A DNA stretch of 61,742 bases, the filler included, from Sluysia triapertura (taxonomy: Eukaryota), in assembly GCA_046118255.1 (NCBI GenBank). It is 4 parts of 4 records of this genome, joined end to end, with 100 filler letters (N's around TTAATTAATTAA, not from the genome) between each part and the next. Parts side by side here need not be neighbours in the genome. Positions count along the whole stretch, not along the records: positions 1 to 11,333 come from JBJNIA010185912.1; positions 11,434 to 36,072 come from JBJNIA010187390.1; positions 36,173 to 47,660 come from JBJNIA010184202.1; 1 more part is not named here. One strand, written 5' to 3'. Of the stretch, positions 4,859 to 42,273 are shown one piece after another (positions within the stretch are counted from its first letter, which is position 1; every line of letters begins with the position of its first letter). The translations under genes and the position numbers were made by a program. The notes beneath the pieces were generated by a model, which made no database searches, was not told the DNA's origin, and saw only the letters and a list, made by a program, of their open reading frames with translations.

Positions 4859-4862
4859 GAAG

Positions 4863-7757: not shown

Positions 7758-10132
7758 TGTGAGGTGTCAAAGATTATTATGGTTTTTAAGTTATAATCGT
7801 TTTTAAAATTTAAAATTAATTTATAATTATTTTTATGAATTATAAAAACAAGTTTTATTAAAATCTTTTGACTCGAAATTTTTAATTTTAAATTAATTGT
7901 ATATTTTCTCTAGTAAAAGATTGAAAATAACAACATAAAACTTTATTTATGAAAAATTTTAATTTTGATACTCCACTCCCATGTATGATTCTTTTTCTTG
8001 TCGTTTCACTCTCTATAAAAATGATACTAAAAATAATAGATAACACTAAAGATATCAAAGTTAAAACTATTTACCTTGATGTTGTAGTCCATTAGAATAT
8101 TGCTAGACGAAGTGGTAGAGACAACTGTAATACTCTTTAGTAATTCTGTAATTGTTTCCGAGTGTCTATTGTAAGTTGCTTCATCTTCTTTGTTGATCGT
8201 CAATTCATGAACAGAATGAGCGTAGTGACAGAACATTCCATATCTTAAGCAAACACCTTTGTTGTCGGTAGAAACTGGGCACAATGTAGCTATACGAGAA
8301 ATTTTTTTATTATTGAGCATGTAACACTCATGCTCATTATCTTTAAGTCTAGAGTCATCACGTTTATAATCATTAAGTGAACAAAGATCATCATTACTAT
8401 TGTTATCATAAACCTTAGATTTATTTTTATTACGTTTATAAATATTATTATTATCAAGAAAATTAAATACAATTAATTTATAATCATAAAATTTGTGAAT
8501 ACATATTATTTTTATAAAAATTAAAAAAATCAACTTTGTACTGTTTAAGTTTATGGGTATTACGTTCGTAGTAGTAAAAGGAATCATGTTTTTTTTGTTG
8601 TTAACTTGATCATCAACATCATCTCGAACACTGTTATCTTTGTTATCATTAGGGTTTTCATTGTTAGCTTCATAATATTCGACTTCGACATTATTGACTT
8701 TGTCACTGTCATCTTCAAGATTGTTATTTTGGAAATCGTCGTCTCTACTATTACTAATTGCGTTATGCCGATCTTCAAAATTATATACTCGAAAGTTTTC
8801 GAAGTTATCATCGTTAATTTTTTTCTGATCATCTTTACAATTAAAACTAGAACATTATCATCTTTAGTGTTATCAATCAAGTTATATTTATCTTGATAAT
8901 TGCATATTATATAGTTATTATATTTAACATCATCAACTTTATTCTGATAATCTTGAGCATTTATAACTGGAACATTATCATCTTTACTGTTGTAAATTAC
9001 TTTATGTTTATCTTCATATGATTACAGTTATGATTACAGTTATCACTGTTGATTTAATGATTGTGCTTAGAATAGTCAATTTTCACAGAGAGCATAATTT
9101 ATTGAAAACTATAGTTAGCAAAAATTTTTAATTGCGACTGAAAATTTAAAATTGACAAAAAATTTTTAGTTAAGTGATCATGATTGGTCATCATTATAAA
9201 ATCACAAGAATTCGATGAAAAAACCAACCTGATTGGCCGTCCAACCAAAAAACATATAAAAATAGTGATCAGAATAAATCTGATTGGACGATCAATAATA
9301 GAGATCAAGAGTTGTATGATTTGTGTGCTAACCACTGTGAGTAAAACATATTACTTGATAATTGATGAGTGAACCACTATCAGTGGTGACATTGACTGTC
9401 ATTGTAAATCAATGTAGTCACCACTGGTTGTGGTAGTTACGACATAATTTGCTATTTTAATAAAAAATGTTATTATTATTATCCAAAAATCACATAAAAT
9501 CTTTATTTCTAGAATTTCACACTACCTTTCTTTTATATCTTTATTTTCTCGACATATTTAAATCTATTTAAGGAGAATAGCTATATTTGAAAAATTGTAA
9601 ATTCGTAATGTTAAATGTGGGAATATGTTGAGCGTGAATTTTAAATATACACTGATTCTATGAATGGACTGATGTTCCTAACTGAAAATGTTAATAGAAT
9701 GTAGAAAGTTAAGACTTGATTACTTTGGAATAGTGTGTATGTTGAAATGAGTGATTTCGAGAATGAAAAGAAGATGAATTATAGTGTAGGTTTAGTCTGT
9801 TTGCAAGAATGGTTATAAAATGTTGAAAGATAAAATATTTTGGATGAATTTTTTAATGTGATTTAATGCTTTTGAATGCAGCTGTGGTTTGAATGTTGTG
9901 AGATTGTGGGTTTAATTGATTTTAACGGATGAAGATGTTTTTAATGGATGTAAAAGAGATAAATATTGGAGTGTTAAAATGTTTAAGAGTTTTATGTACA
10001 ATATGTTGATCTAGTTTATTGTTGTTTTATGTTGATTTTGGGTGTATAATTTGTAGATTTTGAGAATAAATATTAAGTTAACAAAAGTTTATGTAATTTT
10101 TATAAACTCGTTAGGAAAATAGGTTGGCCACA
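7758..10132 (-). mobile_element. Cargo-bearing solo-LTR-like element, copy B (2375 bp)
   Basis: Termini TGTG...CACA; flanks ACTGT (7753-7757) / ACTAT (10133-10137) = 5-bp TSD with one mismatch. CA-rich 5' region; GATTGG-N4-CCAATC-like palindromes at 9231 and 9282. Confidence 0.7.
8027..9080 (-). pseudogene. N/D-rich protein with Unkempt-type CCCH zinc fingers (cargo of copy B), frameshifted
   Basis: CPVSTDNKGVCLRYGMFCHYAH = C-x9-C-x6-C-x3-H with TD..G and G..C..AH, as in Unkempt ZnF3. Upstream ERNTHKLKQYKV resembles the lead-in to Unkempt ZnF1. Confidence 0.7.
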
Positions 10133-10137
10133 ACTAT

Positions 10138-11330
10138 AAGAAAAAAGTAGCTTGTTGGTTATACTTATTGATTATAACTTTTTTGTCATTAATAGCTAAT
10201 ACTATAGCAAGTGAAACAGACGAGGAATATAAAAATATGAATATAGACAATGATCACCGATATCTATAACCAATAGTGGAAATTTGAATTTATTTTTAAG
10301 AAAATGATTTTACGGCACGAATTTGAAATTTATTATATTTACCTAAAGCCTTTGCTAGTGAGTAGACCACATTATACAGATAGTATTCCACATTGCCTAC
10401 ATTATGGTTACAGACCTATATTAATATCCTTTTCTCTTGACAATAAAAGAAATACAATGGATATAAGGAAACGTATTGAAAATATAAAACAATTTGAAAA
10501 CGAGAAAACAAATGAAGTATCTACCAAAATACCTAGTTATAATGTAACTTTTAAAACTAGTAAACAAATAAAAAATCGACAACAAAGGATAAATTAGAAC
10601 ATTCCTACAAACTCTTTATCATGTTATTGATAATACTATACTTATGTACCATACTCTATTTACTTCAAATTGGCAAAAAAAGTACGAGTTCCTACAAATA
10701 ATAAAAATTATATACCATTAATGTTAATTACAATGATTACAGTAATTCTGAACATTCTTTTAAATGAGAACATTTCGAGTTTTATAATATGGATAACGAG
10801 GTAAAAGTTAAAATATTAAGCAGCAATATTCGTACTAGATTTACCTTTCTGAAACCTGCTAGGCTTAACATTAGTTCATGGACTATATATGAAAATTATA
10901 TTAATGATGATTTAAAATATCCTATCACATTGTGTTCAGACTTATTACCTATTGAAGATAGACATATTATTGTGAAAATTCACGTCTCATCAAAATATTT
11001 ACACTTTGCATTAAAGGGAACAAGAAAACATTTAACAATATTGGAACGATCCGGCATTGGTAATATTAATCGTATCGGCAATATTGTTTGTAAATTGCTC
11101 TTGCTATAGTAGTACTAACTATTATTATGTTTGTCTCAAATAGGTTTCGATATCCATGTCTACCGCTTAATAATGATGACGAGGATCGATATACAATTCC
11201 GCATTTAAATAATTATGCTCCTGTAGGGAAATCACACAAAATTCATCACACTTCACCACATAAAAACATTTCACATGTACACAGATTATTAAACAAACTA
11301 CTAAACTCATTCAAAAAACAAACATAATCA
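10138..11330 (+). pseudogene. Degenerate accessory ORF region of the Gypsy relic (TM segment plus unknown domain)
   Basis: Continues the sequence interrupted by copy B: hydrophobic WLYLLIITFLSLIA followed by same-strand ORF fragments (10304, 10789, 11127). Confidence 0.35.
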
Positions 11331-11333
11331 TCG

Positions 11334-11433
11334 NNNNNNNNNNNNNNNNNNNNNNNNNNNNNNNNNNNNNNNNNNNNTTAATTAATTAANNNNNNNNNNN
11401 NNNNNNNNNNNNNNNNNNNNNNNNNNNNNNNNN
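11334..11433. other. Artificial contig spacer
   Basis: 44N + TTAATTAATTAA (stops in all six frames) + 44N. Confidence 0.97.
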
Positions 11434-12468
11434 ATATTTATATATATTTTTGTCTGTAGTTTTTTCTCTCTTTTATTATTAATTTTATTATGTAATTCGA
11501 GATTATTTCATTTTTCAATATAAGTAAAAGTACTTTCAATTAAAGTAAGCACTTTTAAAGTGCTTTCCTTATAAAAGACGAAGTAAACAATTGTTGATAC
11601 TCAAAAGAAAAAATCTAGAAAAATGTAAAAGAAAACAGTTTAAAAAAGATAAAAATTATAAATGAATCTAAGTAATAGATTGGTTTCTTGTGGACTCAAA
11701 ACAATACAAAGACCCAGATTTATCACACTTAATGTATCAAAAATGTGTTTATTTTAATTCTTCACATTCCAAAACAGTTGAATCAGACTAATCCGAAATG
11801 ACATGGTGCAAAAAGACTTTGAATTAATCGAACAATAGATGTTATAGAGAAACTATAAGTTAATTCACATGAAACGGTTAGAAAATTTTGTAAAATAATT
11901 CAAGGTCCATTAAAATAAATAAATCATCAATTTAAAAATCAATACAATTCAAGGGAGTCTATACGAACAAGGTTTTAATTTTAATTTTTAATGCAAAATG
12001 AATTATTTCTCAAATTTCATTCGATTTCAATTTGTTTAATTTAGTGACACTATGTGATATCCCAATGGATTTTATAAAATGCATCATTAATATCATTATT
12101 ATATATTTTACTCATTATAAGATGCATTATAATCGTAAAGAAGTTATTGTAATGGTTATTGTAATTAGAATGAAAATATAAAGGTAATTTAATGTCCTGA
12201 ACAAAGTATAAGTTGAGAATAATCTACTAACTTTCATTAATTATTACGACTAAATTATAGTTTTAATTAAAATTATTTTAATTTTATTATTTAAAATTAA
12301 TTTATTAATGTATTACTAACTAATGTTTATTAATGCAATAAGATAAACCAATTTCTGAAGAAACTAATTTTTAGTAATATTTAAAATCACTTAATGTAGG
12401 AAAGTGATGAAACAAAATGCTCGATAAAAAATATTTATGTAACAATTTTTATTTTTTCTTGAATAGAT

Positions 12469-12470
<2 letters not shown>

Positions 12471-12529
<59 letters not shown>
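12471..12529. repeat. (AAT)n microsatellite
   Basis: Directly visible. Confidence 0.95.
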
Positions 12530-12530
<1 letters not shown>

Positions 12531-14681
12531 CAATAGGAAATTGTAAATAGATTATTAGAGAAAATTATTTAAAGTTATAACATTATGTTAGAAAAAATAC
12601 GAAATTATGAGGATGCTATAGACATAATGAAAAAACTATTGAAAGCAACAAATAATTAGTAGAAAATGATATTAATTAATTTGGATAAGCATTTTAAAAA
12701 ATAGGTAAAAGCATTTGGTTAGTACTCGCGCCTAATGATTTATCAATTCTGGAATTTTTCAAATTTACATGGATAAATAGTTTAAAAAAGAAAAACAAAA
12801 GCAAATGTAAATATTTGTGCTACATTAACATTAGAAAATGTAACTGGTTAATTCAACTTTATATTGGATTTTATCTAATGAATTTAAATTGAGTTTTATG
12901 AAAAGTTTATCTAAAAAAAACGATTTTTAGATAATACTTTTTTTACCAAAATATTATTCAAATAATTATTCAACTTCAAAATAATCAGGCAGCAATTACA
13001 ATATACCATTCATATAATTACAATTTTGTTCGGAATCACTAACATTTTTCAAAAGTGTAAATGTGACTAATAACTAAATGACAATATTGTTTATTTTGTG
13101 GGATGGCCGCATTTATTTTGTTGGAAAATTTTTATTATTATTATCCTCTTGTGAATCATCACCCTCATCGACAAATTCTGCTTGTAATTTGGTACCTAAA
13201 TAGGTTACACTATAAGCAGATTTTAACAAGACTTTTAATCATTCCAGAAAATGTGTTTTCAGTATCACTGCAGATTTATCGTACTTACAAAATTAATTAT
13301 AAGCAATCTTTTGGAGAGAAAAATTTGATGTCTATCTCGTATAAGTTATACAAATTTTTTACATACAATAATGTTTAGTCAATAAAATTATTCTTTAAAC
13401 GCAATACTTCAGTTGAGAAGTTAGGAAAGTAATAAAAAAATTTAATTTGCATCCAAATAATAAGATATGAAACACATTTTTATTTGAAACTGTTTTTGGA
13501 CACTTCATTCATTGATACTTTACTAATTCATTTAGAATTTTCTAATTACAAAAACATTAACATTTTTGAAAGCATTTTTTCCTATTTTTAATTATTCACT
13601 TAAACATGCAAATTAAAGATAATACAAAAATTATATTACTGTCTCTAAAACTTTTCTTCATAAGCACTATAATTATTCGAAATTTAATGTTTGTTATTTG
13701 TATAATATAAAATTGAACGAAAAATATTTCACCTACCTAATTTTTCATATTTTTCTTCAAAACATTCGCATTTAGGAATTTTACTGAAACAGACCCATGA
13801 ATTCATGTAAAATACAAAAATAACGCCCCCAAGGACTATTAATACCAATACAACAACAAAAATGATAAGTTCAATACTATCTAAAAATTGTTATTTTAAA
13901 TGAAATATATAGAAAAATTTACAAGCCATGTTACTGAATTTAAGAATATCAATAAAATAAAATTCAGATTTTTTATTTTTCCAAAGTGAAATTTAATAAT
14001 CAATTTAAACAAAAGAATAATATTTTTATTAATGATATTATAATTAGCATGCATATCATTTTTTCAAACTAAAATGGTTTGACAATTTTAATTTATAATT
14101 ATTTCAAAAATTAAATATAGATTTTAAAATGTTAAAATGACTTTTGTGTAACTTTAATTTTTTGCATAAAAGGAATTTGAAATTTTTACTAACCAATAAA
14201 GCTAGTTACAAAAACATTAATTACTTGGTACTTTAAAAGTTAAAATAAAATTTACATAATTTGCTAGTTTTACTCAATTATTATTGTAGTAATTATTAAT
14301 TTTCTTTAGCGTAATTTTAAATATTTTCCTACAATTTTTAGTGTTTCTACTTTAAAAGATGCAATATTAATAAACCGTGAAACACGTTAAAAATTATATG
14401 AAAATATTGAATGCATAAACTAGAATTACTATTCAATAATATTAAAATAAAAAAATAATGCATAATATTTGCTTAAATTTAAAATGTATAATTTTTAATG
14501 ATATATTTTAAAAACATTACGTATTTATAATATTTGGTAAAAAAATTATATGGGTTATAAAAATTATAATTTTATTTGAGTAATATTTAAGATATTACTA
14601 TTTCGTGAAAATATTTTATTTTCTATATACTAATTTTGTTATTTATTTATTTTAAATATTTTATAATTGCGTTTGAATTAA

Positions 14682-15467
<786 letters not shown>

Positions 15468-16176
15468 GTTATATTTCAAAGTTAAATTTTATTCTAAGTG
15501 ATATTATTTGAGATTTCGCCTTAATTTACATTTGATTAGATCTTTAATTAAATAAATGAGATATATTCCACGATTTTGTAATATTTATATTTTTAGTAAA
15601 CATTTATAGCTTTCCTACGACTTTGGCTGTGATTTTTTTTTATTTGAAAATTGTTTGTGATCAAAATTAGTTTTTCAATTATTCAGCAGTTTGAACTTTG
15701 AAAATTTTATTCATGTAACATTTAACTGTCATTTGAATTATTCTGTAGCATATGCTTTTTTGTTTTGTATTATAAATTGTTAACTTTGGTAATGTTTTTT
15801 ATAGTTTTATAATCTAAAAATAATTTTTGTTTTGTACATACTAAAGAATTGATAATTCTAATTCATGTAAATAATACTACTCGGCTAAATAAACTGTTAA
15901 CATATTAAAAACCTTGCATGATGAAAGTAAACATACTACTTTGGTTTTTTTGAATAGGCGCTAATATTTAACAAAAATGCTATATACAGTTCGCTACGAT
16001 CGGACAATTGTAAACATCTGGTTCACAATTAATGTGTTTAAAATCCATTTCATTCCGAATTATGTTCCAAAGACTTCGGTTTTAGTTTACATTTTCATTT
16101 GTGTTTATAAATTTGGTTTTGGTTTCTTTTGCATAAATCATCGATGGTATTAGATTTATGAACTCTTACCAAAATA

Positions 16177-16308
16177 AAGTGGATCCCCATATAAGGCGAC
16201 CCTCAATTATTAAAGAATAAATGTCATGAGTTAATGATATATGTTAATTTGTTTTCGTTCGAAAATTCTTATAACACTATACTTACCGCGTTATACGGGA
16301 ATCCACCG
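16177..16308. mobile_element. pogo/Tc1-type MITE (132 bp)
   Basis: Imperfect TIRs AAGTGGATCCCCATATAAGGCG / CGCGTTATACGGGAATCCACCG, with TA on both sides. Confidence 0.7.
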
Positions 16309-16310
16309 TA

Positions 16311-16800
16311 ATTGCAACAAGTGTTTCAAATTTTAAAATTAAAGGTGAATATTTCTTAACGAATCTGTTTGATGTTGGGAGGAAATGCCAAAGAAAATAT
16401 TTCATTGAATGTAACGTCAGAAGATTAAATAGATTTGAACTATTCAAAATATCAATAATTATTTATATATTACATAAGTGTCCAAAAACAATGGGTAACT
16501 TTTTCATTTAACCATTATAGCTAAATATTTTAATGTGTAGTTTGGGTAGAAATATTGATTTGATAATAAATCTCTTGACATTCCTTCGATTTGGTGTGGC
16601 CTAGTGGGGCGATCAAACAAAATGAAGATAATTTCTTTAGAATTTATTGAAACATTTAGTTTAATGAACCCAATTTTGAGTAGGCTATTAATCATTTTTT
16701 CCATTGACTTTTGCACTAATTGTTATTGTTGTAAATTTTATTCAAAATATATCTTGTTTATTTTAATGCATTATTTACTTAGTGATAAAATATTGATTTT
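16311..16800 (-). pseudogene. Highly decayed integrase-like (Ginger/retroviral-type) remnant
   Basis: Across frameshifts: SP..PHQ-EGM-KRF and WLNEKVTH..W..DVTFNEIF, reminiscent of the P.HP.S.G.VER and W..N....TP.E..FG integrase motifs. Confidence 0.3.
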
Positions 16801-17562
16801 TAAGAATTCAAAAACTTTAGTATGATCAGAATGCAAACAAACAAAATTAATGACAATTATATAATCTTGAAATATGACAAATAATAATATCAATGTTTAT
16901 AATTACAAAGATTATGTCGGAATTTAAGTAGTTATTTAAATTTAGTACAATTTTACCATAATCAGATAACATGCGAACATTTTATTTAGTTACAAAAATG
17001 ATATAATAAAGTATTATTGAAGATAATAAAAAATTCCCAAACCGAAATGATATTCTTTAAATGTGATTAATACAACTATAATAATTTCAAACTTCGAAGC
17101 AGTTGTTATTAAATATATACACTTACTTAATTTCACATAAAACTTACAAGATTACTTGAGTTTTTGCATTTAACTGAATCTAAACCTTAAAAAATAAAAA
17201 TGCTATAAAATTGTTAAAAGATTGAATATGTTGTCAAATGCCTATTACAAAAGTAATAAATTTGATCAAAGCTAATAAAATTGTGGTCAATGCATTTTAA
17301 CTTTTAGGCGAATTAAATTATGGTGAAGTAAATTATGATTCTTCAAATTTAAGGTATATAAAATGTTTGGTTAAAAAACCTATTCGGGTTATGCTATTGA
17401 ATCACAAAAAATCATCTGTCATGTCTGTATCTAAAATTAAATTAATAATGAAATTTATGGAGATTATGAAATTTTTAATAGAATTAATATTTGAAAATTA
17501 GAAAAATAGTTAGAAATGAGTAAAATTATTTATTATTATGAAATGTATAATATTATTTAATG

Positions 17563-18984
17563 TAATTGATGATTTTGAAGGGTTTTTTATTTTTTATGGT
17601 TGAAAAATTATCAAAAACTTCACAAAACTAATTAACCAAGCATTAAAAGTTTCAATTACTGACGAACAATTTAACGAAATAGGCTTAATGCCTTTAAAAA
17701 TGAACGTGATTTTAAAGTCAAACCAACAAAACTTAAATAAGGTTTATTAACAAAACAGAAAAATTTTATGTCTATGATCATACTCGTTAGAATTTCTTTT
17801 AAAAACGATGAAAGTACATAAATCTGCTTGCTTGATGTTGATTTCACGAGATTAGATACGGAATTAAAATTGTTCAATACTAAATCAGCTAATTTAATAT
17901 TGTTGGTCGAACGACATTTTAAATATAGACACTCTTTCATTATGGAATTTCCTTTGAATATATTTGGAAAATTTATCCATACTACTTCATTGCAATGGAA
18001 TAATACAGAATCATTAACTGTAATATCAAAACTTAATTCTTCATAAAAACAATGATGGTTGCAATTACATGAATTTAAACAAAAACTAAAATTTAGGTTT
18101 TATAATTTTTAACTATGAATTATTATGTTGCCTGACTCTATGCAACAAAATGCTATAAATAGTACAACCAACAAAATCCTCTCTAAAATCTTTTTATTTT
18201 TAATGTCCGTATAATGATGTCATTGTTGATTGGGCATTCAATCCCAATAAGTAAAATTGCAATACAGAGATAGACTTGACTAGACGCCCAATCAATTGCT
18301 GTATTAACGTAAATAAGATTATAAGCGTGTATGCTTGTCACCATGCTGTTAAAATAATTGACGTAGAGAAATGACGACAAGCAAAATGACACCACACATC
18401 TGGAAACTCTCATCAATCCACACTTTATACAAAATGCGGCATTAATTTGATTAAATTACTGTCGATTGGTGACAGAATATAATGATTGAATTAATTAAGT
18501 GTTATTGATAAAAAAATGAATAATAATAATAATTAAAATGCATAATTCTTTAAAAATTCGTATTACATGATCTTTCTTTTAATTGTTCTTTCGTTTCTAA
18601 ACACATAAGTAAACAAATTTAACTGAAGTGAAGTTTGTTGGCCTAAAATACTAAAAACGATTAAGAAGTGTGAACTTAAAGTTTTTCCAAGTGTAACTAC
18701 TTGAGGGTGAATGAATTGAGAACTTGAAATGTTTTGGGTTAATTTTAAAATATATGTTTGATAATTTAAGGTGTAATTTGTGAGTTAAGAATATTTTAAA
18801 TGGGATTTGAAATATATATATTAATGTAAGTATTATTTTGATGTTGTACAGTTGTGAATTTAAAATGCTTTGAAGTATGAAAATGTTCTAATAGATATGA
18901 GTAGGTAAAATATAAAATGTTAATGCATGTGATATTGCGAATACAAAATTAATTTTAATTTTAAGCTAAAGGTTGACTACCACG
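17563..18984 (-). mobile_element. Cargo-bearing solo-LTR-like element, copy C (~1.4 kb)
   Basis: 18620-18984 is clearly homologous (reverse complement) to 40265-40540. Palindromes at 18228 and 18278. Candidate TSD TAATG at 17558-17562 / 18985-18989. Cargo ORF remnant ~18050-17670 with no recognised domain. Confidence 0.65.
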
Positions 18985-19929
18985 TAATGTTACTCGAAAA
19001 TCCCAAAAGCCTATCAAGTTTTCAAGAATACCTGAAAGTTAATACGGTCTTATATGATCTCAATATTAACAAGCTCAAAGGTACTTTGATTCCTTCAAAG
19101 TTTTTCCAAGTCCTTTTTAAGCTTCCAAAAGTCTCGACATCTTATATAGGTCTTTGAAATGTCAAGGTATTCTTTAGCTGTTAAAATTATTATAGATGTT
19201 TTTATTATCATGATTTTTATTTCGACAATGTTTATAATGTTCAATCCATCAATTTGTACCAGTTCTTCCTTTATTTTATAGTTTTATGTGTTTCTCACAC
19301 ATCCCATAATCTACAGTTTCACAATCCCAACAACACGACAAATGTTTACGCCCGCATTAAACAATAATAAAATAATAGAAAATGCGAATTACTAACCGCA
19401 ATAATCATAATATTGCTTATAAGACTGTGGCGATTGCTAATGCTAAATCCTCAAGCACAATATCTGTCATAAATTTATTGAGGCAACTCTCTTAATGGAA
19501 ATGAAGATGATTTTCTTTATTTTTTCTCCTGATATGCCTAGATATTTTGTTCTAGTTTTATTACGAAAATAATTGGAAAAATTGTAAACTAAAAATAATT
19601 ACTTCACGTAATTATTTATTCTTTTTAATCTTTCATACACCGACGAATTTCACTAATTAAATTTCGAAAGTAATTTTCGTCGGCTTCCAATTTTATTGTT
19701 TCCTGTATTTACACAAAGATAATGAGATTTGTGACGAGCAGTACCTAGTTCGGATGTTGATTAATTTGAATATTAATTTATCTGTTTTTTATTTATTTGG
19801 AAGATTAATTGTAAATCAGAATTATCTATAATATAAATACTCAAGCTTTTATTTTTATAATCAGTTATGAAATTTATTCTGGTGACTGATTTAAGGACAT
19901 GAATGTGATGACTGTTTCGAATTAGAATT

Positions 19930-29700: not shown

Positions 29701-32700
29701 TATGGAATAGAATTAGTAATGAGGCACACAAAAATAGAAAAAATGGTCTCCCATTTATATTAGTCAAGTATTTGTGTAGATATTATTTTGGACAATTGGA
29801 TTCTAGTTAGGCATTTGGATAATCTTTGACATTTAAATTTCAGTTAGACATTTGGATTTTACTCTCTAAATCGACGCAATGATAGTATTGATCAGTACAG
29901 TGAAGGGCTTAGAAGTACAATATCCTTTAAAATAAGTTATAATTTTTAAATTAAAAAAATTTTGCAAAATGTTATTTTTTAGTATTTTATTGTATTAGAA
30001 AATAATTGTTGTGGAGCTTAGGAATAAATTGTGGTTAAGTTTTTTTATTTGAGACTGAAATAAAATTTTATTCGCACTTTCATCTCTAATATCAGAGACC
30101 AGTCAAAATTACTGTTCAGATTAAGGTTTTAAAAGTTTGAGATCAGTCAAAGTATTGAGTCAGTTTAAGTAATAAAAGTTATCGATTATAAAGTTAAACG
30201 GAATATTTTTCGAGATTTAAAAACAAAAGATAAAGTTAATAATTGCTTAAAGTTTAGAATGTAAATTAAAGTCAACGTATAAATTTAAATTACACAATGA
30301 TTTTTCTGCATTATTCTAAAATTAGTTTGCCAAATTTTTCGCATTAAACTTGAATTACAAAATATGGTGTTGTTTCGCAATATGCAAATGAAAATCATTT
30401 AGTGCAATGTAGTTCAGCTGCAGAATAAGCTTGAATCCCAACTTGTTTTTTAATATATAAATGCTGGCTTATAACTTCAAAGAGGTATTATAGGAGATTA
30501 ATCTTTTATTTATCAATAAACAATAAAAAAAATTACAATGAAATTCAAATGTTAATCTGTATTATCTACGCTGAGTGTAATTATAATTTACACCTTACAA
30601 AGTAAATACACGATTAATTCGCAAAATTTCGATTCATATTTAAAGTATTATTTTTAATCTGATATTACGCAAATCACTTCAGTTTCTGAATCTATAGCTT
30701 TAAAAATATTTATGCTGTAATAAGCTTAAAAGCTGGATATCATCGAATGAATTCCAAACGGCGAAACGCGAAAATCTTCCATCATTTTGGTGACAACTTT
30801 TACAAAATCATGGAGACAACTCAAGTTCATTAAGTAAGCATATGTTGGATCAACTTTTATACACGGATGAACTAAACTTTTTGAAACACTTAGCTTTCCT
30901 TATAGTATACTGAATATAAAGATTATGATCTTTCAAGGTTCTAATTAAAACTATTTTATCCGATGTTGTTTCATTTTCTGTCAACGGAACACGTAGTAAA
31001 GATAGTTCTCCATGTTTGAAATTTTTTTAACAACTCTTAAAACTTCAAATTCGATTATATTCAATTTATCATTCGCCACATATACGAAATACATTTCTTT
31101 AATTAAAGAATTATTAAAATAATTGTTTAAAAAATCCCATTACATATCACTCAATGATGTGACAAATTGAAAATTTTCCAGTATATTTTCTTCACTATCA
31201 TTCCTAGCCAGAGAATCACTAATTTGAGATTTAAATTCTAACATTTGAAACTAATCTGCTGCCCAATATAGTCCTTGGCAATTTCCTTTGGAACATTGTT
31301 ATCATTTTCAAAACTGTAAATAGAATCTAAACAGATTCTAAGACCGTTTGACGTAAGAGGTTCATTTGACGTTATAATTATAATTAAAAATCGCATGAAA
31401 AACTTCTGATGAACAATAGAAATTAGACATCATGATTCAATTTCTATTTCACATATAATTCATTTAAAGTGGATACAACATAATTAAAATATTTAATTCT
31501 TTAATAACATGCAATTTCTAAATTTTTAAGTCATCAGAAAAATTTCAAATTTTAAATTCTACATCTTCTGCCAACAATTACTTATGTATAGTACTTTGAA
31601 AATAGCAACCATATTTTACAGGCCATAATCAAATAAAATTAAAAGGCCTTATTTTGCACAAAAACAAACCTTTCAGCACAAACAAATAACAAATACTCCA
31701 TAAAATCTGAAAACGAAATCTTTAATTTTCACATAAATAAAAAACTATTACAACAAATGCACATCGAATTAAAATTATGACATATGCACGATGAACGATG
31801 TAATTTTTAAAGTTGGCAAAAAGAATTTCATTTAAAAGTTAAATTCAAATTAAGGTCTATTAATATGAAGATGCTATTAAAAACAATTAATTTTAAAATA
31901 TAAGAGATTATGATTGATAAATAAATTCTTTTAACTTATTCTTCCACGAATGACTGAAACGCAGATCGATAGAAAAATTTATTTTAAAACGAAATGAACA
32001 TAACTTTCCACTTTCATAATTCTGCAATAGCTCAAGAAGCGATAGTGTAAAGATTATTTAGTAATATTAAAGTTTTGTCGTTAAATTATTGTTTGTTGAG
32101 ATTAAAGTTTACTTATAAAAGTATCTATTAAAATCTGTATAAAGTTATTATTAAAAAATTATATTATAGAAAAATATCATGCAAATTAAAAATTAAGAGA
32201 AAAATAATAACATATACTATAAAATGATAACAAATTATAGTGTATATGAAATCAAACTATAGTGTAAATGAAATAATATTAAAAAAGTAATTACACTATA
32301 TATTACTACAAACAAATTGAAAAAATGTCGTTATTATGGAAGAAATCAAGTATAAATAGACAAGTTTTATCAACACATTTTAAAAGGTATCGATTTAGTT
32401 CCAAGTATTTAATTTGGTTATTCATCGAAGATTTTCAATTGCTGTAGTTGCTATATCCCGAGTCAAGGTATTTGAATAATTGATATTTTAAAATTTAGAA
32501 TAAATTAATATTCTACCGTGAGTTTTCATCAGAATAAAATTTAAAATAATTTAATTGTTAAATTTAAACTTGATTTTAAAAGAAGTTCATATAACTACGT
32601 GTGGTACATTTTATCCTATATATTATTCGAATCATTTGTATTTATTACTTACATTTGATAAATAAACTTTAGTGAGTTTAGTTTATATTGTTTGATTTTA

Positions 32701-34786
32701 AGGAGAAGAGCTTGAATTTTAACGTTAATCAAACAACATTGCACTTCCATTTCTTACACCAGAGACAAGTGAACAGTAACCTCCATATGTTAAAACAAGT
32801 GTTAGAAAATAATATTGGTAAAAAGAGCTAAGTCAAAAGCCAAGTGATAAACATTATAAACTACACACCTATAAAATATAATCTAACAATAGCTAGCGTC
32901 TATATAATTGACTGAGACATCTCGGTAATTTGCCTTTGTAAATATTACATAAACTTTGTGCTTCGGATAATCCCAGTATCGATATAAAGTATTGAATGAT
33001 AGGAAAATTGTCTATTATTTTCGATTTTCAATGTGACTCATTCAATCTATTCACGTGAATTACGGAAAACAAATGTTAAACGACATGTCAAGCAATTATA
33101 AATATTAAGGAATGACCAGTCGAGTTCAGCTACACATTTATGTATAATAATAATAATTATTATTATTATAAAATTTTACATTTTGGGATTAATAAGACGC
33201 ACAAATAGGTTAAAAATGTCTTTTGGAACGGTTGTTTCACAGTAATCGCTAATGTTAACAAGGACTGTAGGAACAATATCTAGAATATGGTAAGGTGAAA
33301 ATGCACCGAATGTTTTGTGGTGGGTGAAAAATTTGGCATGGTGAAATAGGTGTTGTGTAATAGGAGTATAGTGTTTGATGCATGTTTCTGACGCAATAAA
33401 ATTGTCAGTAATGGTTTGAGCCACATATACTTTAAGATTATCATTTTGTAGCTTTATTTTTGATATTTATTTGTGTCTCTTCAATAAAATAATTAAATTT
33501 CAACTTCAAAAATTAGATTAAAAGTAATAACTTATAAATCAAGAAATTAATATTGAACTACTAACATTATTTCCTTAAAATCATTATCATTTATACGATA
33601 CATCATCAAAAAATTAATGGCATCCGATCCAGAAACTAAAGACCTTTTATCTAATTGCAATGTCTCATACCATTTAATATAATACTCTAACTGATCAGGA
33701 GTTGCTGTTGGTATCATATTCCTAGAGTTATCTAACCATTACGATAGATTTTATTTTTAAATAGAATTACCTAATTTTCCGGGACTCGCAGCCAATCCTT
33801 CTACGGGTTCCATTAACACATATCCTTTAGCATTATAGTCCACATCATCATTCATTTTATTGTAATCGCGTTCGAGATCGTCAGTCTCATCTGAATCACT
33901 ATCATGCGTAGCTGGATCACCTAAATCTTTCTTACAATCATCTTCATCGTAACTACTAATTTCAGAATTGGCATCAAATTGTTTTTCCAAAATATCTTTT
34001 ACACTTACAATTAATGTTGGATCCAACAAGCCTATAATTTTATGAAAAAAATTATTTTTACCTTTATTATCTTCATCAGAAATAAAATTGTCATCACAAT
34101 TCTCTGTCGCATTCCATGGAATTTCATTACGACTCATATCTGATTGAATAAAAAATGGATTGTGATCCAAAAATAACGATTCATTGTATGAATTAAGTTT
34201 ATTTTTGTATCGATTATTCTAAAAATATTAATATAAAAATTTTTTAACTAACCACAGCATTTTCATGTAGCTTTTTCAGATTAATTGTTCCTGATAATTC
34301 ATTGTTATGAAGGCGTTTCTGTGATTTCTGAGAGAACCTAAAAGCTAACTTATCTATTTTTGTAAAGGCTTACTCATTTGTCTCAATAATATTGATATCT
34401 GTTTCATTTATATCATAAGTAAGGAGAGGTATAGCATTTTCTCCTAACATAAATTAAATTAATAATGTACTTTACTTTGAGAATGAATTATTTCTTTTTC
34501 TAATTTACACCCAGCTTGAACCAATGCTATTATTTTTAATGCAACATAAAATTGGCTTCTTCCAAAATAATCTAATCTATTGGCACCGGAATATTCACTA
34601 ACCTAAAATATTAATTAATATTAAATAACAAATGACTTTTTCAATATCTTCTAATGAAAGACCAGATTTCAAGAAAAACTTTTTAGCATCTTTTATAGAT
34701 ATATAACCATTTTTATTTTTTTGAACTTGACCATAAATTTTCTCATAATTGAAAGTTTCATACTGGTTAATATTAATTTGCTTCAT
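23773..34786 (-). CDS. REPS1: RalBP1-associated Eps domain protein (REPS1/2-like); exons 34786-34637, 34602-34476, 34443-34374, 34337-34253, 34218-33771, 33731-33566, 28862-28717, 24017-23773; 3' end not located
   Basis: GANRLDYFGRSQFYVALKIIALVQAG matches the REPS N-terminal EH-like domain. The second EH domain (TPDQLEYYIKWY..SGSDAINF..|HLVDINVESSVNLIQFCRAVHIL..GFQLPSELPEFLLP) is split by a 4703-nt intron. All junctions are GT-AG and in phase. The last exon is joined on phase compatibility only; an in-frame stop at 28714-28712 is an alternative end. Confidence 0.85.
25541..25867 (+). repeat. Four short palindromic repeats GCTAGACC-N~9-CTAGC
   Basis: Copies at 25541, 25746, 25807 and 25848, with unequal spacers. 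Confidence 0.75.
26390..26480 (+). mobile_element. hAT (Charlie-like) terminal fragment
   Basis: CATGATTCCCAAAGTGGTCTATATCGACCCC..GGTCGA resembles CAGTG.TTCCCAAA hAT ends. Confidence 0.5.
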
Positions 34787-36072
34787 AAAATGTCATTTAA
34801 CAAATTATTGAATAATAATTACGAAAAATGATTGATACATAAAAATATTTAATAAAACATTTAATAATATGTAACTAATAATTAAATTCAAAAAAAGTAT
34901 TAAAATCTAAATAATAGGCAAAGTAATAATTCACAATATTTTAATTTATACGAAATTAATTAAAAGAATAATCGAAAATATAAACACACTAATTTAATTT
35001 CTAATGATAAATATTTGATTTTAAATAAAAATCTTAAAATGTGTTCGTTCAAAATTAAAATTTTATTTTATAAAATAAATTATTTTTTCAATTTTTTGGT
35101 GTAAAGTTGAATTAGCAGAGCAAGTACCTTATATTTTCATTATAATAAAGAAAAATGATAAAAATGTAAAATAAATTTTTGAAGAATTTGTATATTTGTT
35201 CACCACGCTAAGTTTTAATAATTTATGGACACAATGGTTAAAATTAGGAGTTTAGTATAATAACCGAAAATATAATTTGATGGTGATGATTGCTTTACTC
35301 CAAATTAATTTCAATTTTAATAATGTTATCAAAATATTCTATTTTTGATGTTAAGTATTTTGCTGAGGATGCATTTATTTCATGAAACAGCTTCTTCGAA
35401 TGAAATATAAAACAAATTTGCTTTATTGCAGTAAAGGTATTATAAGTACATACAATTTATGCACAAAATTTGTTTTAAAATGTACAGCTTACCAGGTGAA
35501 TATGCATGAAAATACATTACACAGCATTATTCACGTACACAGATATATATACTCCCAATATTATTAAATTTTAATTTGATTACTTCTAATAATATATTTA
35601 CACTACAGCAATATGTTTCTTCTTTTAAATGATTTAATTTATTTTAAACTCAGAAAATTAAAATAAGATATAGCTTTATTTATATTTTCTTATCACAATT
35701 AGTATGATTTATGCATTTTCACAAAATGTAAATTTATCCATATTCCTTCTAATTGTTGGGATTAGTAAAGAATAAGGGTTGATAGAAGGGTCAAAACTTA
35801 GGACTGCAGTGTCAGTGGAACATAATTAAAAAATCAAGTTGAGGCATTATGATGAATTGAAACAGCAAGATAACTATAGGGAATATTTTAATCAAGGTAA
35901 AATAATGAGAAATACGAAGAAACAACCCTGTAAAAGGTTTAATTTGTTAAAACATTAAAGTACATTTGTTAATTAAATTAATTAAAATTTGTTTAATTTA
36001 ATAACTCAATGGAAATGCTTGCTCATACTATGATCATACTAAATTTAGTGTATAATGTTGAGTTTTATTATT

Positions 36073-36172
36073 NNNNNNNNNNNNNNNNNNNNNNNNNNNN
36101 NNNNNNNNNNNNNNNNTTAATTAATTAANNNNNNNNNNNNNNNNNNNNNNNNNNNNNNNNNNNNNNNNNNNN
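36073..36172. other. Artificial contig spacer
   Basis: 44N-TTAATTAATTAA-44N. Confidence 0.97.
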
Positions 36173-36358
36173 GTTTATGTTTCAAAAATATACAACCAGT
36201 ACTACCAGAGAATGTCAAATTACTGGAAGATTATGAAATATTTAAGAAAGAGGCAAAGTTGTATCTGTTACAGAAATATTATAATGAATGATTTACCTTA
36301 AGCGCTTTTGAGTACTTTGCAGTGGATATGAGCGCAATATAAATTAGTATATTATTTT
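36173..36358 (+). mobile_element. L2/CR1-like LINE 3' end (copy 1 of 5)
   Basis: YNQ.LPENVKLLEDYEIFKK..LL.KYY-type terminus, 3'UTR ending GCGCAATATAAAT and an (ATT)-rich tail; recurs four more times in the window. Confidence 0.7.
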
Positions 36359-36370
36359 ATTAGGATTTAA

Positions 36371-36439
36371 CACTAAACATCGGTCAAATGACCGATGACG
36401 GTATGAATAGGTATACGTCAAACCTAGGTACGTACAGTG
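36371..36439. mobile_element. Miniature piggyBac-derived element (69 bp)
   Basis: TTAA|CACT...AGTG|TTAA. Contains GGTCAAATGACC and GGTATGAATAGGTATA, shared with the piggyBac end at 51759-51820. Confidence 0.75.
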
Positions 36440-36967
36440 TTAAAGATAGAGTGTTAATACGTAGCTACAAAAGGAATCAGAAATTCTTGTTCAATAATTC
36501 TCCAATAATTTTTATTAATAAATTATTTAAGTGATACATAAAATTTAAAATTTCTGGGCCTGAAATTTTTCAACATCAAAGAAGGATAATTTTGAAGGTA
36601 TTGTGAGTAATACCGATATAAAGCATTGTCGATAAAGAAGATAATTGCTGCTTTTTGCCTTTTAATAAGCAAAAATATGTCATTTTTAGTAACAAGGCTG
36701 GATTCCATGATAGAAAAAATGGTATTTTGAAACACTGCATCTTTTACGGGAATATTTTTATACGTTCATAAAATATTTTCGCGTAAAAATCACTTTATGA
36801 AACATTCGATTTTTCTTTATTCCAACGGATGTAACAGTTGATTGTAAGATATGAGGTTCTCATCCATAGAAAGTGCTGTAAGGTATTGTTGGCTTTATTC
36901 TACGTGCATATCGGAACTGGCATCCAATAACCACAGCATTGGATAATCTTCATGTATTATTTCATAC

Positions 36968-37065
36968 GGTAATAGCAGTAATAGTAGTAGTAGCAGTGGT
37001 AGTAGTAGTAATAGTAGTAGCGGTGGTAGTAATAGTAGTAGTTGTAGCAGTAGTTGTGCTACTAG
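36968..37065. repeat. (GTA)n degenerate microsatellite
   Basis: Directly visible. Confidence 0.9.
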
Positions 37066-37244
37066 TCTTATGCCAAAACTGGTACGTGTATTACGACAAA
37101 CTTTGCTTAAGTTGCTTGCTTGATTTACAATATCAAAATGTATTCATTTCCCTTTTTAGACAGTAAGAAAACAAAAATACCGTTCCCATAGTAACTTGAA
37201 TCGCACGTAATAACAATTAAAATAAATTTATTTTCTATTTTTAG

Positions 37245-39468
37245 ATTTGTAAATTTATATTTTGTGGTCCCTCAGAACTTGAATGTCATACAAAGAAGTT
37301 GCATCAATCAGACGATGATAAAACAATTGAAAATAAAAACAGGTCTGAACAAACACAGTCGAATTCTTCGGAGAACAACAATGAGTGTCGCTTGCAAAAC
37401 GTACTGGATAATCACAGAGAACCTTTGTTGGGTTTGGAATATGTAAGTGAATATCAATTTTTAGACGAAATTCGTAATTGTGACAAATACGTATGCAACT
37501 TGTGTCAGATGTGTTATACGAAACAATTCATTGTTACCCATGTCAAGTCGTTGAAACATCGGCTGTTATATTTAGTTAGTTTTCACATATTATTCATTAA
37601 AACAAAATAACTAATTATTTGTACAAAATATATTGTAAATTAATAAATAAAAAGTTCGTCTTTTTCGTCGTGGTTAGTCTAACTGAGGAAATCGATGTGA
37701 AATGTTACGGTCTATTAATTTTATTAATGAGATGTTTTTATTGTTTACTGAGCTTTCTAGATCTATTCTGTTTTCATACTTGGCTTGTTAGGATTGTTAG
37801 TTTTGTTTTGTAAATATTTAAGTAAGTATTCCAAGACACTGAACATCGTTTTGGATGAGTTAAACCCATTTCAACATATTTATTTTTGGCGCCCCCCAAC
37901 TTAATAAAGAATCTTAACGCCACTATAAAATAAACTTCATAAATAAAATAAACACCTTTTTAATAACAAATGTATTTTTCTGTTTCTCATAAATTAAATA
38001 TTATGACAACAGTTCTAATTCTTTAGCAAAATAATAAAGAAAAATTAACAAAATTAAATTTTAATTGGAGTTAAAAAACTTTTAATTTAATTTAAATTTA
38101 TTTTCCAAATCTAAGAAATTCTTTCAGTTTTCAATCGGGAAATAAATCTAAGCATTATTATTAGTAAGTAGTCTAATTTGCACACTGTGTATTTTAGAAA
38201 ATAAATCAACCGAATCTTATAAAACTGTTGGAGCAAAGTCGAAGTTCCAAAGTCAAATACTTTCGCTTGAATATTTATTGTCAAGAATTGGAGCTCTTGT
38301 TGGGTCGTAGTTGTATAAAAGTGTATCGTGAATATAAAGAAAAATCAGAGAAAGAGTCGAATTCCGTTGATTTAGACTACTTGAGTAATGAAGACAATGA
38401 TGAAGAAAAAGATAACAGTGGAAATTGTAAAGAAGATGGCGAATTAGGATTGCACGATGATGATAAAGAAGATGAATTTGATTCTTGTAATACTTACCAT
38501 CGTTTAGTTTCCGATACAGATTCCGAGGATGAACTAGAAGCTGGCGAGTTATGTTCGAGTTCCAGTTCGAGTTTGAGTGAAGAATCTGTGAAGGAAAGTT
38601 ATGGAAGTCCGGTAAAAAAGGTAACCAATGTTATTAATAAAAATAATGATGGGAAAGAATCGTTTGATAAACTTATTAAACGTATCGATGGGAATATCCC
38701 AGTTATCTCCAAGAGTTTCTTAACTAATTCCAAGTTTAAAGAGATCGGTTTAGATAATAACAATAGCAATAATAATAGTAGTAATGCCAGCTGCAGAACT
38801 TCACAAATACAGTGGTTAGTTTAATTATTCATTTTCTGTTTTATAATAGTCGACTCAGGTGGCGGCTTGCGGACCACATTTAGGCATTTTACTTAGAATT
38901 TTTTAATAACCTCAATAAGAATGAAAAATGATCTATGTAAATACATCTGACAAAGACCTAAACTTAACAATTTTCTATATCCAACGAAAATTATACGATC
39001 GTACGATTGAAATAAATATAATGTTGAGAAATGAGCATGAAAAGTGCCAAGGGTTTCAAGGGGCCATGACTAAATAGATTCTGATTACTAATCTATCAGA
39101 TAAAATTATTATTTGTTATGCAGGTCTTTACAATCAAGTTTAAATGAAAAATCAGTACTAGAATACATTTCCAAGCAGTCAAATTGTAGATACGAAGTAG
39201 ACAACTGTGAAGAATTGGTCGATCAATTTAAACAAGAGGTAGCACTGGTTTTGCATCGATTACCATTTAATACTGTCATCAAAAAGGTTTCTTTTTCACA
39301 ATCGAATCGTAAACAACAATCACAAGATAAATTTTCAATTAGTGGATTAGAGCCTATGAAAATGGAGCATTTAAAAGTTCGCGAAGAAGCTCAAAAGTAT
39401 GCTCAACAAGTGAGATTAAATAATTACAAAATGTGTGGATTACTGGATTCTAGTGATAAATTGTCTAG
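37245..39468 (+). CDS. Partial gene: matrin/U1-like C2H2 zinc-finger protein with acidic region (exons 37245-37574, 38198-38814, 39124-39468)
   Basis: EPLLGLEYVSE..YVCNLC..HVKSLKHRLLYL motif. Three exons with AG/GTTA boundaries in consistent phase (0, 2). Confidence 0.75.
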
Positions 39469-39469
39469 G

Positions 39470-39484
39470 TTATTATTATTATTA

Positions 39485-39543
<59 letters not shown>
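39470..39543. repeat. (TTA)n microsatellite at intron start
   Basis: Directly visible. Confidence 0.95.
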
Positions 39544-40264
39544 TAAATGTCCAATGTTAACATGAAAATTATGATTTGAGACAGTTTCATTTGTAACATT
39601 ATCACCGTCACTTGGTAGTAAGAGAAATCTTTAATTGAAGAAGTTAAAATACATTTACATTTAAATGTAAACAAAATTCGATTCCAAATTTTGTATTATA
39701 TGAAAATATTTTTAACAATTGTAATAATGAAAAAATAAATAATAAATTGTCAGCAATTGTAATAATGTTAAATAAAATAAAATTTCAATACAAACAAAAT
39801 GTTGATAAATTTCTCTTTACTTGCGCGGAAAATGAGTCAACTTTACATGTAGGGAATCAAAAAAAACTTAAATCTTGGGGTCTCTTTAAGATTCACCAAT
39901 GATTAATATATACAAGACTAAATATTTTGAAGCTAAGTTTAACTCAACTGACAAATACAGTGTGATTTTAGGAACGAAAGTAATATACTCAAAATGATAA
40001 TTTTAATGTATTAGGCTTTTCTTTTTAATACAATTGTGTGTTTTAAATAATAGTTTGAGACTAGCTTTAAACTAGCCCAAAACGTTTTATATAGTTTAAG
40101 TGGATTTTAATGCTTCCTTTAAAGAAGGATGAGAAACTTATACAAATGAAACTTACTACTTATAATGGAAAGAAAGAATCTGGAAATCTATGTTCAAATC
40201 ACCAATATACAACATTTAATCGAAATCGATGAGTGCTTTCTTTTATATTATGTAGTGTGTGTGT

Positions 40265-42273
40265 TGTGGTGAGCAACCTTTGACTTAAAATTCAAAATAA
40301 TTATCTCATTTACTAACATTTCATATTTTACTTACTCAGATTTATTAAAACATTTTCACATTTCAAAACATTTTAAATTCACAATCTTACAACATCAAAA
40401 CTAATGTACATTTCAAATTTCATTCAAAACAATCTAACTCATAATTTCACAACATTAGAATCACAATTTACATCCTAAATTATCAGAGATACATGATGAA
40501 ATTAATTCAAAACATTTCAAGTCCACAATTCTTCGACACTCAATCTTCAACACCTTAAAGACATTAAATTCATATTTTAAAATCATTTTTAACATTCAAA
40601 CCCAAGTATAATTTTATTTGAATTCATTTTAATTCTCTAAAGGAAAATAATTTTATTTGCGAAAAGAAGTTTTAAGAATCAAAGATAAAATTTATGTATT
40701 TTTTATTTTTATATAATTTTGTTATTTTATTTCTTATTTTATGATTGGTTTTATTTATATTATTATTTAATTTTTATCATTTATATACATTATTATTATT
40801 ATCATCATTTTTATCGTACCACCATTATTATAATTATTATTATTACTATTAACAATATTATAACAAATTAAAATTATTTACATCTGCCATTTGCTGAGAG
40901 CTACATTAAATTTATTTTGTCACTGAGTGCGGCAGTGTGCCTTTTTATGCTGTATCGTCATTTTATTCTATTGCTTCAGCTTCATTGGTCGTCCAATCAT
41001 TCCTATTTCTGAATGTTATTTCTTCCTTATTTGATTGGATGCCCAATCATGATCAATTTTTCTATTCCACGAATTGTTCAAAAATCAGAAGTTAAAAGAA
41101 GGTACAACCAATTAGAACACCAAAAAAGATATAATAAGAATTGTAACTGGCTCTCAAGTATAAAATATTTTGGCATTCAAAATTAATTGTAACGGGACTA
41201 AAGTTAAAAAATTTAAAAACTAGAAAGCTACTCAAAAATAAAGTTAAAGAAAAAAAGAATATTCAGATATTAGTGATAATAAATTATGTGGCGACTAAGT
41301 TCTCTAGAAATAACTAAAAATTCTGATTAACGTCAAAAGTTAATTGAATTTATACGTCTTATTTATATTCGACTAAATTCATCATCATCATCATTGAGTA
41401 ACGTTAAATTAGAATATTTTATAGACCTCTATAATGATAATTCGTTTTCAATTATAGCACCAAACTTTGATCAAATGTATATAAAATCGTATAGATCTTC
41501 AGTTCAATGTTCATAACATTATAGTAAGAAATGACCATCACATCATTCTGGATAACGAAATGACAGATGTAGAGGTAATGTCCCCGTCATCTCAAATGTT
41601 CTGTAAAGTCCAACAAGTATTTATAATGTTAAAAAAATGCTAAATTACCAACCCCAACAAATTAAGAAAATAAAAGCAAACGAAGGAATAAACTTAATCC
41701 AATGATCGATTTCAACAACAAAGGGATATGATTAGTTATACAATTACTATTTCAGCTACGACACTTCTCAAACTAATGAATTTGGAATGTGCGAAGTCTG
41801 GTAAAGCATGCAAATATTATCACAATTTCGAAGAAATGAATCACAGCGGAATTGGAAACACCAATTACAATCAACATATGAATCGGATAAATCTTGAAAC
41901 ATTGAGATTTAAAGAATCAAACAGAAACTTTACAATCGACAAGAGTCAAATAAAAGATCCAATACCTTTGCTAACAATTTATTATCAAAAAATCGTGAAC
42001 TTATTGTACTGGTGGCGTAGTTCAGAAGCTGACCTGATCTTTAAAATAAAAGAACACTTCACAACAGTTTTAATAAATGTCAACTTGCATGTAATCATAA
42101 TAAATTTCTCTTCTTATGTTACAATTTTTGTATTTATAAATAAATTTAGTAAATTAAATCTAATTTATTTAGTTTCAATAATAAAAATAATTTTTCTTAA
42201 TCTTTGTAAAATTTAAGTTGGAAGCAATTTTCAAAACCATAAAAGTAGTGATCATAAAATTAATACCCCTAAA
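40265..42273 (+). mobile_element. Cargo-bearing solo-LTR-like element, copy D (2009 bp)
   Basis: Starts TGTGGTGAGCAACC; perfect 5-bp TSD TGTGT (40260-40264 / 42274-42278); palindromes at 40983 and 41033; 3' AAAACCATAA motif as in copies B and C. Confidence 0.72.
41450..42060 (+). pseudogene. Decayed Unkempt-type CCCH zinc-finger cargo (copy D)
   Basis: TSQTNEFG/ECAKSGKACKYYH (C-x6-C-x3-H, with the N-terminal part in another frame) and upstream YIKSYRSSVQC..HH..RNDRCR. Confidence 0.55.

Follow-up and report, generated by a model that had tools for sequence, protein, structure and literature searches.

Probable solo LTRs pairing a shared CCAAT module with differing genes in the genome of Sluysia triapertura

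What kind of mobile element carries a shared regulatory module together with a gene that differs from copy to copy? The question is raised by a stretch of 61,742 nucleotides from Sluysia triapertura (GenBank assembly GCA_046118255.1; hereafter, the window), which consists of four contigs joined by spacers of N's (positions 1-11333, 11434-36072, 36173-47660 and 47761-61742), has a base composition of about 25% GC, and holds four related copies of such an element, termed A to D, on three of its contigs. An earlier reading of the window made from the DNA alone (the sequence-only reading) had described A to D as solo long terminal repeats (LTRs) of a large retroelement lineage, each depositing a promoter together with an accessory gene, or cargo. 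The coordinates, strands and three-contig spread that it gave for the elements were all correct on re-reading (Table 1). Here, we find that the elements are probably solo LTRs, and we tentatively prefer an orientation opposite to the one first proposed.

The ends of the elements were as had been described. B, C and D share a (T)GTGG..CAACC start, a pattern found four times in the window and on average 0.05 times per shuffle, and carry AACCATAA near the far end. The fourth match to the start pattern, at 58742, was considered as a fifth element and rejected, there being no module behind it. The reported 5-bp target site duplications (TSDs) were also recovered, with agreement at 4/5 positions in B and at 5/5 in both C and D; at fixed ends, the chance of such agreement is 3.4% for 4/5 and 0.28% for 5/5, and free choice of ends raises both values somewhat. 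These figures cover B, C and D, as one end of A lies off its contig; the far end of A, which is visible, resembles the far end of B. Clean TG..CA termini are found in B alone among the four, and the B junction at 7758 is bridged by a contig of run X1 with 0 differences. In agreement with the sequence-only reading, there are no terminal inverted repeats (TIRs) among the five longest inverted matches shown for each element, and the two ends of an element match over only 3-4 bp. Additionally, no TGG start of a primer binding site (PBS) and no purine tract of the polypurine tract (PPT) type lies beside any of the seven visible ends in either orientation, as expected of solo LTRs. Taken together, the TG..CA-type ends, the 5-bp duplications and the lack of both TIRs and priming signals argue that A to D are probably solo LTRs.

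The elements also share internal motifs in a common order. The AAAGA..TTATG motif noted earlier is present in 4/4 elements, and a further motif, TAAYTGYMA, lies 136-201 nt past the last CCAAT box, again in 4/4. Inverted CCAAT boxes had been reported before the open reading frame (ORF) of every element; this stands for B, C and D, which have a two-arm module, whereas A has a variant with one box per arm. The two-arm pattern, which was drawn from the elements themselves, has 3 matches in the window and 0 in 200 shuffles. In D, a TATA-like box and TAAYTGYMA are found from the CCAAT module toward the cargo, and CATAAAAAG and TCAGT in the other direction.

Similarity among the elements persists after masking of low-complexity sequence, strongly for C and D (71% over 344 nt, E 8e-40) and only modestly for A and B. 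With plain scoring, the C-D pair alone is clearly above shuffles, and the remaining pairs score as shuffles do, or nearly so. When modules picked by hand were scored with composition adjustment, each of the six pairs outscored 599 or more of 600 nulls drawn from real sequence. A profile built from C and D found B as its best outside match, both in the CA-rich block (E 0.0018, with high bias) and in the CCAAT module (E 0.00025). An unbiased scan of repeat-masked sequence (334-338 scan windows, with background maxima taken from 296) gave A and B as mutual best matches (71.9 vs background maxima of 58 and 63), and likewise C and D (121 and 126); A-C scored just above background at 62. On this similarity evidence, the family appears to comprise one close pair (C-D) and one distant pair (A-B) with weak links between the pairs. 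Searches of metagenome and viral contigs with DNA patterns from C/D and B/D gave 0 matches.

In contrast to the module, the cargos differ as far as tested: no pair aligns beyond short low-complexity pieces. B and D may share a distant finger, so that not every cargo can be called unrelated to the others. The intact ORF of about 320 aa that had been reported in A proved to be 318 aa long with an ATG start, a length with a chance of about 1e-13, and the other five frames carry 24-38 stops. No relatives of ORF A were found by Pfam, PHROGs, PDB sequences, IMG/VR or exact look-up, by a word-seeded search (0/507 candidates) or by a full phmmer search over 1.84 billion representatives (0 matches); Atlas matches to TPR/HEAT clusters (0.92, 135 shared features, low recognition) are weak leads only. 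A single-sequence fold had a predicted local distance difference test score (pLDDT) of 33 and was unusable. Among the differences shown (40/1767), seven variant places fall in ORF A, six of which change a residue, one of which is silent and none of which gives a stop; in this very small sample, the pattern is as expected from neutral drift in a young copy.

Unkempt-like fingers had been claimed for both B and D. The claim was overstated: B has one finger, and D has an unconfirmed half motif. The B finger matches Pfam zf-CCCH_UNK with E 3e-7 at 30.7 bits, just under the cut-off of 31.1, and its best PDB match is Unkempt (E 0.051); Unkempt fingers normally occur in tandem, whereas B has one. No relative of cargo B was found among longer proteins (0/481 candidates). 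The half finger of D has no Pfam match and is identical to the B finger at 9/30 positions (E 0.011), and on this resemblance the cargos of B and D may be distant kin. Cargo C has a best Atlas score of 0.81 and no match to A; its possible assignment as a glycosyltransferase, from a PHROG match with E 0.013, was rejected as chance.

The abundance of A and B was gauged from sequencing depth in one public run, in the form of contigs, which covers contig 1 and is possibly the window's own source rather than an independent one. Summed depth is not a copy number and is inflated by AT-rich DNA at 80% likeness; the values range from 12-23 for exact unique pieces to 242-843 for bins of the A cargo and 865-2573 for bins of B. 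Depth is higher at the shared ends (10072 at place 57 in A and 22680 at place 9938 in B), and reaches 18000-58000 over the Gypsy coding remnants on contig 1. These values hint at A and B being repeats together with their cargo, and at a module more abundant than any single cargo.

In which direction, then, would such LTRs run? While the LTR-like identity, the shared module and the non-homologous cargo of the sequence-only reading hold up, the orientation that it implied is doubtful, because an LTR running with its cargo would need a repeat (R) region of 1-1.5 kb and would have the unique 3′ (U3) region as its conserved part. In published descriptions (given here by PMC number, each for the portion of its text that was available), in the LTRs of animal Metaviridae, a GT-rich stretch follows AATAAA and U3 is poorly conserved (PMC3601003); LTR conservation lies in or next to R and the unique 5′ (U5) region, and long HML LTRs hold antisense ORFs (PMC2664473); and subfamilies of crapaud differ in U3 and share R/U5 (PMC10787394). 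Away from the cargo, each of A to D shows the CCAAT pair, then 200-360 nt, an AATAAA or GATAAA hexamer, CATAA and a U-rich run. In B to D, the U-rich run is followed by 387-595 nt with 5-7% C and 18-21% G, ending GGTTG..CCAC(A); TGT is two- to threefold enriched in these tails (3.5-5.2 per 100 nt vs 1.9), which are the most C/G-skewed stretches of the window after an (ACT)n array. The string of hexamer, CATAA and U-rich run has four occurrences in the window; each element contains one, in every case on the strand opposite to its cargo. This motif order would fit the published R/U5 anatomy, and we therefore changed the reading of the orientation: that the cargo lies antisense to the LTR in a variable U3 has, in our estimate, somewhat less than an even chance of being correct overall.

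Two further features bear on this arrangement. In both directions, D contains TATA-like boxes with initiator-like motifs at their customary distance, the other elements being less clear, and the inverted CCAAT pairs would suit a two-way promoter. Because introns in the sense direction are lost in retrotransposition, the candidate intron in B would favour an antisense cargo.

The explanation that we prefer, though we hold it with a little under even confidence, is that A to D are solo LTRs of a large Gypsy lineage resembling the Burro elements of planarians, with antisense cargo in U3 and a two-way CCAAT promoter. Such an LTR would run opposite to the strand first assigned, from a short end with the complement of AACCATAA, through the cargo (U3) and the inverted CCAAT pair, to 200-360 nt of promoter and R, the poly(A)-signal-like motif and a GT-rich U5 of 390-600 nt with a GGTTG..CCACA end. 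One promoter direction would yield the genomic RNA of the element and the other the cargo mRNA, and subfamilies would swap or lose cargo as U3 is swapped. Recombination between LTRs would leave a promoter plus a gene at each site, where most copies would decay. Of this picture, the element boundaries, the TSDs, the common motifs with their sequence of occurrence, ORF A and the B finger are observed, whereas LTR identity, orientation, promoter activity and parent lineage are inferred. In a bolder form, which we consider doubtful, U3 would be an exchangeable antisense gene slot of a giant flatworm Gypsy lineage, making every solo LTR a self-contained expression cassette that outlives its retrotransposon; a two-way CCAAT promoter would then serve an orphan 318-aa protein in one subfamily and an RNA-binding CCCH protein in others.

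Several observations weigh against the preferred explanation. Within the window, the family shows no paired copy, gag/pol link, PBS or PPT, and none of A to D flanks the Gypsy remnant on contig 1 as its LTR. C and D are without a clean CA end: C starts with CG and its canonical CA overlaps the TSD, and D ends with AA inside a (GT)n run. No profile recovered A, and neither B-C nor B-D was above background in the unbiased scan. The pattern of hexamer, CATAA and U-rich run was drawn from the elements and has a shuffle mean of 0.47, with a maximum of 3 in 100 shuffles, and AATAAA-like hexamers are common at 25% GC. Away from the cargo, no core promoter is conserved across all four elements, D alone being clean, and 390-600 nt would make a long U5 for an animal Gypsy element. 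Finally, the B intron was rejected as proof of orientation, as one was seen and 0.74 are expected, which is not beyond chance.

The original orientation, in which the CA-rich block and CCAAT boxes make up U3 and the ORF sits in a very long R or U5, is unlikely, and is the rival that survives best. It accommodates all of the LTR-type evidence (ends, TSDs and lack of TIRs), and it gains from TATA-like boxes in D and C that follow the last CCAAT box by 110-123 nt, from TAAYTGYMA just upstream of the ATG in A, and from AT-rich, AATAAA-containing stretches beyond the cargo in B, C and D. A promoter on the cargo side is, however, predicted by an antisense cargo in U3 as well, and under the original orientation neither the strand-biased block nor the shared motif has a role. 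Moreover, a conserved U3 with a variable R is the reverse of what is described in the available portions of the LTR literature (PMC3601003, PMC2664473, PMC10787394).

That A to D are instead not LTRs at all, being non-autonomous DNA cassettes without TIRs that carry passenger genes and are moved by an integrase-type (Ginger-like) transposase, we regard as quite unlikely. TG..CA-type ends and 5-bp TSDs without retroelement signals would be expected of such cassettes, no parent element was found, and a sense intron in B, if real, would be tolerated. Ginger elements carry TIRs, whereas A to D have none beyond 3-4 bp, and a poly(A)-like motif and a GT-rich tail would have no role in a DNA transposon.

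We consider it likewise quite unlikely that the elements are ordinary solo LTRs whose ORFs are later one-off insertions, captured pseudogenes or one fast-evolving gene in decay. The weak finger match common to B and D, a short NCNH-type string that B and C share at the TAAYTGYMA motif, a contig that joins 7994 to 9119 and so skips the cargo of B, and the broken state of 3/4 cargos are all consistent with such an origin. Against it, the cargo portions of both A and B are multicopy in their own right, neither an internal TSD nor a poly(A) tail was apparent when the sequences were read, cargo pairs align over nothing longer than short low-complexity pieces, and ORF A is open over 330 codons. A Helitron was rejected because TSDs are present.

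Under the preferred explanation of antisense cargo in a Gypsy U3, a candidate for the parent class lies on contig 1 itself, as a degraded Gypsy interior (Table 1). Its fusion glycoprotein is of Monjiviricetes type (Pfam, E 1e-11). An env gene before the protease is characteristic of planarian Burro elements, whose accessory ORFs vary as well (PMC6431247, as far as available), and a Burro-type Gypsy is a plausible parent class for A to D. The remnant's reverse transcriptase (RT) and integrase pieces lie directly against each other owing to a large deletion, and its integrase fragment has a single 13-residue match in IMG/VR, in an unrelated phage. A was considered as the 5′ LTR of the remnant and rejected; it abuts the remnant, and no PBS follows A. 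A non-coding insertion of 1.2 kb (about 3621-4839), flanked by a GTTTG direct repeat and ending TTTACA, interrupts the env-like gene; it lacks a CCAAT module, did not match A to D by BLAST, and is perhaps a solo LTR of another family. A second short remnant of the RT/RNase H linker is also present in the window (6362-6474 vs 57454-57567, 71% identical).

How do these elements compare with known systems, again as described in the portions of text available? The closest parallel in LTR anatomy is with sag of mouse mammary tumour virus (MMTV), lentiviral nef and the antisense ORFs of HML2/3/4/8, in which a long LTR owes part of its length to an ORF within the variable portion (PMC2664473). The HML ORFs, like the cargos, differ between groups, and are mostly antisense. 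Unlike A to D, whose host is an invertebrate, these are vertebrate retroviruses, and sag and nef are in sense orientation; the HML ORFs are without a start methionine and mostly near chance length, whereas ORF A has an ATG and 318 codons (PMC2664473). One cargo of A to D also differs from sag, nef and the HML ORFs in having a host-type CCCH finger.

The giant Gypsy elements of planarians known as Burro (GYPSM1) resemble the present case in their AT-rich, flatworm-like host and in a mononegaviral-type env upstream of protease, RT and integrase as on contig 1, as well as in very high copy number and in accessory ORFs that differ from family to family (PMC6431247). The Burro extras (MATH, BIR, BCL2, ankyrin and RING) lie in the interior or the polyprotein, and the available part of that account mentions no LTR ORF (PMC6431247). 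The putative link of A to D to Burro is drawn from the remnant on contig 1, and the possible match to a planarian (Dugesiidae) host extends as far as the flatworm affinity of Rab14. In the plant Gypsy elements Grande, RIRE2 and Retand, whole families carry antisense accessory ORFs of unknown origin close to the 3′ LTR, but these ORFs lie between pol and the 3′ LTR, so that a solo LTR loses them (PMC7264820). Podospora crapaud likewise has a shared R/U5 half, a swapped U3 and many solo copies, but its LTRs are 339-443 bp long and no ORF is described in them in the portion available (PMC10787394). Bdelloid rotifer LTR retrotransposons are invertebrate Gypsy elements with a family-specific captured ORF3, which differs in being internal, downstream of pol, and lost from solo copies (PMC5408684). 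No description of ORFs within animal Gypsy LTRs was found in the literature searched, outside which Grohme et al. 2018 and its supplements may describe the LTR content of Burro. ORFs inside LTRs are known already from MMTV sag, nef and HML. A to D are a real, dispersed family whose members are likely solo LTRs and have a regulatory half in common but different genes.

Solo LTRs are commonly regarded as free-standing promoters and enhancers. If A to D carry whole genes, recombination between LTRs, which is normally disarming, would distribute many expressible accessory genes across the genome and would offer a direct route to orphan gene families, and annotation pipelines would be masking real ORFs inside long flatworm LTRs. 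It may be speculated that a CCCH RNA-binding cargo is a candidate for interfering with host RNA silencing; PIWI control of Burro has been described (PMC8532177, in the part available).

Table 1. Positions of elements A to D, their modules and cargos, and the Gypsy remnant, counted along the window
Feature	Position	Strand	Description
Element A	1..1823	+ (cargo's strand)	cut by contig start; ends ..CCAACA
A shared motif AAGAAAG..AAAGATTTATG	104..138	+	other strand: poly(A)-signal-like hexamer, CATAA, U-rich run
A CCAAT repeat	497..557	.	perfect 13-bp inverted repeat holding CCAAT/ATTGG
Cargo ORF A	739..1695	+	318 aa, intact
Degraded Gypsy interior	1834..7064	+	mononegaviral-type fusion glycoprotein, protease-like, RT/RNase H, integrase C-terminus
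Element B	7758..10132	-	2375 bp; TGTGG..CTCACA; TSD 4/5 at 7753-7757 and 10133-10137
Cargo B	8027..9090	-	Asp/Asn-rich ORF broken by stop and frameshifts; CCCH finger 8216-8281
Cargo B candidate intron	8027-8074	-	48 nt, GT-AG
B two-arm inverted CCAAT module	9230..9295	.	
B AAAGATTTTATG motif	9493..9504	-	
B CA-rich block	9540..10132	-	GT-rich tail on other strand, likely U5
Element C	17563..18984	-	1422 bp; CGTGG start; TSD 5/5 at 17558-17562 and 18985-18989
Cargo C	17671..18099	-	142-codon open frame without early ATG; no credible relative
C two-arm CCAAT module	18227..18291	.	
C CA-rich block	18585..18984	-	71% identical to D's
Element D	40265..42273	+	2009 bp; TSD 5/5 at 40260-40264 and 42274-42278
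D CA-rich block	40265..40652	+	GT-rich tail on other strand
D two-arm inverted CCAAT module	40985..41049	.	
Cargo D	41340..42216	+	heavily broken ORF remnant; partial CCCH motif 41788-41823

An 11-bp unit is repeated 3.4 times directly at the end of A (1823-1859). The flanks of B (7170-7757 and 10133-11333) belong to another high-copy repeat with a protease-like remnant, and include a 113-aa frame at 10768-11109 for which neither Pfam nor PHROGs gave a match; a contig running directly from 7599 to 10364 hints that copies lacking B exist. D adjoins a decayed Tc1/IS630-like transposase (about 39900-42930, minus strand), with HTH_Tnp_Tc3_2 matched at E 0.028 on the right flank and, on the left, what we take to be a Tc1-like motif that has no Pfam match. 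D was probably inserted inside this transposase.

The other contents of the window include animal host genes (Rab14 and an F-box exon) and, by Pfam search, many transposon remnants. The Rab14 gene is divergent (about 14720-15470, plus strand), with very short introns of 33, 43 and 38 nt as read by eye. The best named matches of its exon are mostly parasitic flatworms at 74-76%, with two further records at 90-91%, among the best 120 of 722 matches; in a quick tree of 33 rows, the exon groups with these two records, outside Neodermata and otherwise unresolved. On this evidence the host is likely a free-living flatworm. The F-box domain exon lies at 47176-47472 (minus strand, E 2e-10), and a piggyBac-type transposase fragment (DDE_Tnp_1_7) at 52760-53050 (minus strand, E 4e-18). 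An open frame at 58107-58427 (plus strand) sits in a locally GC-richer stretch; it has no Pfam match, and its HW motif is reminiscent of an Ulp1-type protease. No tRNA genes were found in the window, and an Rfam search gave 0 matches, and thus no known ribozyme of the Penelope or retrozyme repeat type. A degenerate (ACT)n array of 700 bp occupies 60452-61151, and a shorter one 36969-37054. Finally, a dispersed repeat of about 190 bp occurs in five copies that are 75-88% identical (36173-36362, 44092-44214, 47761-47931, 51067-51278 and 54913-55010), and forms the starting sequence of two contigs.

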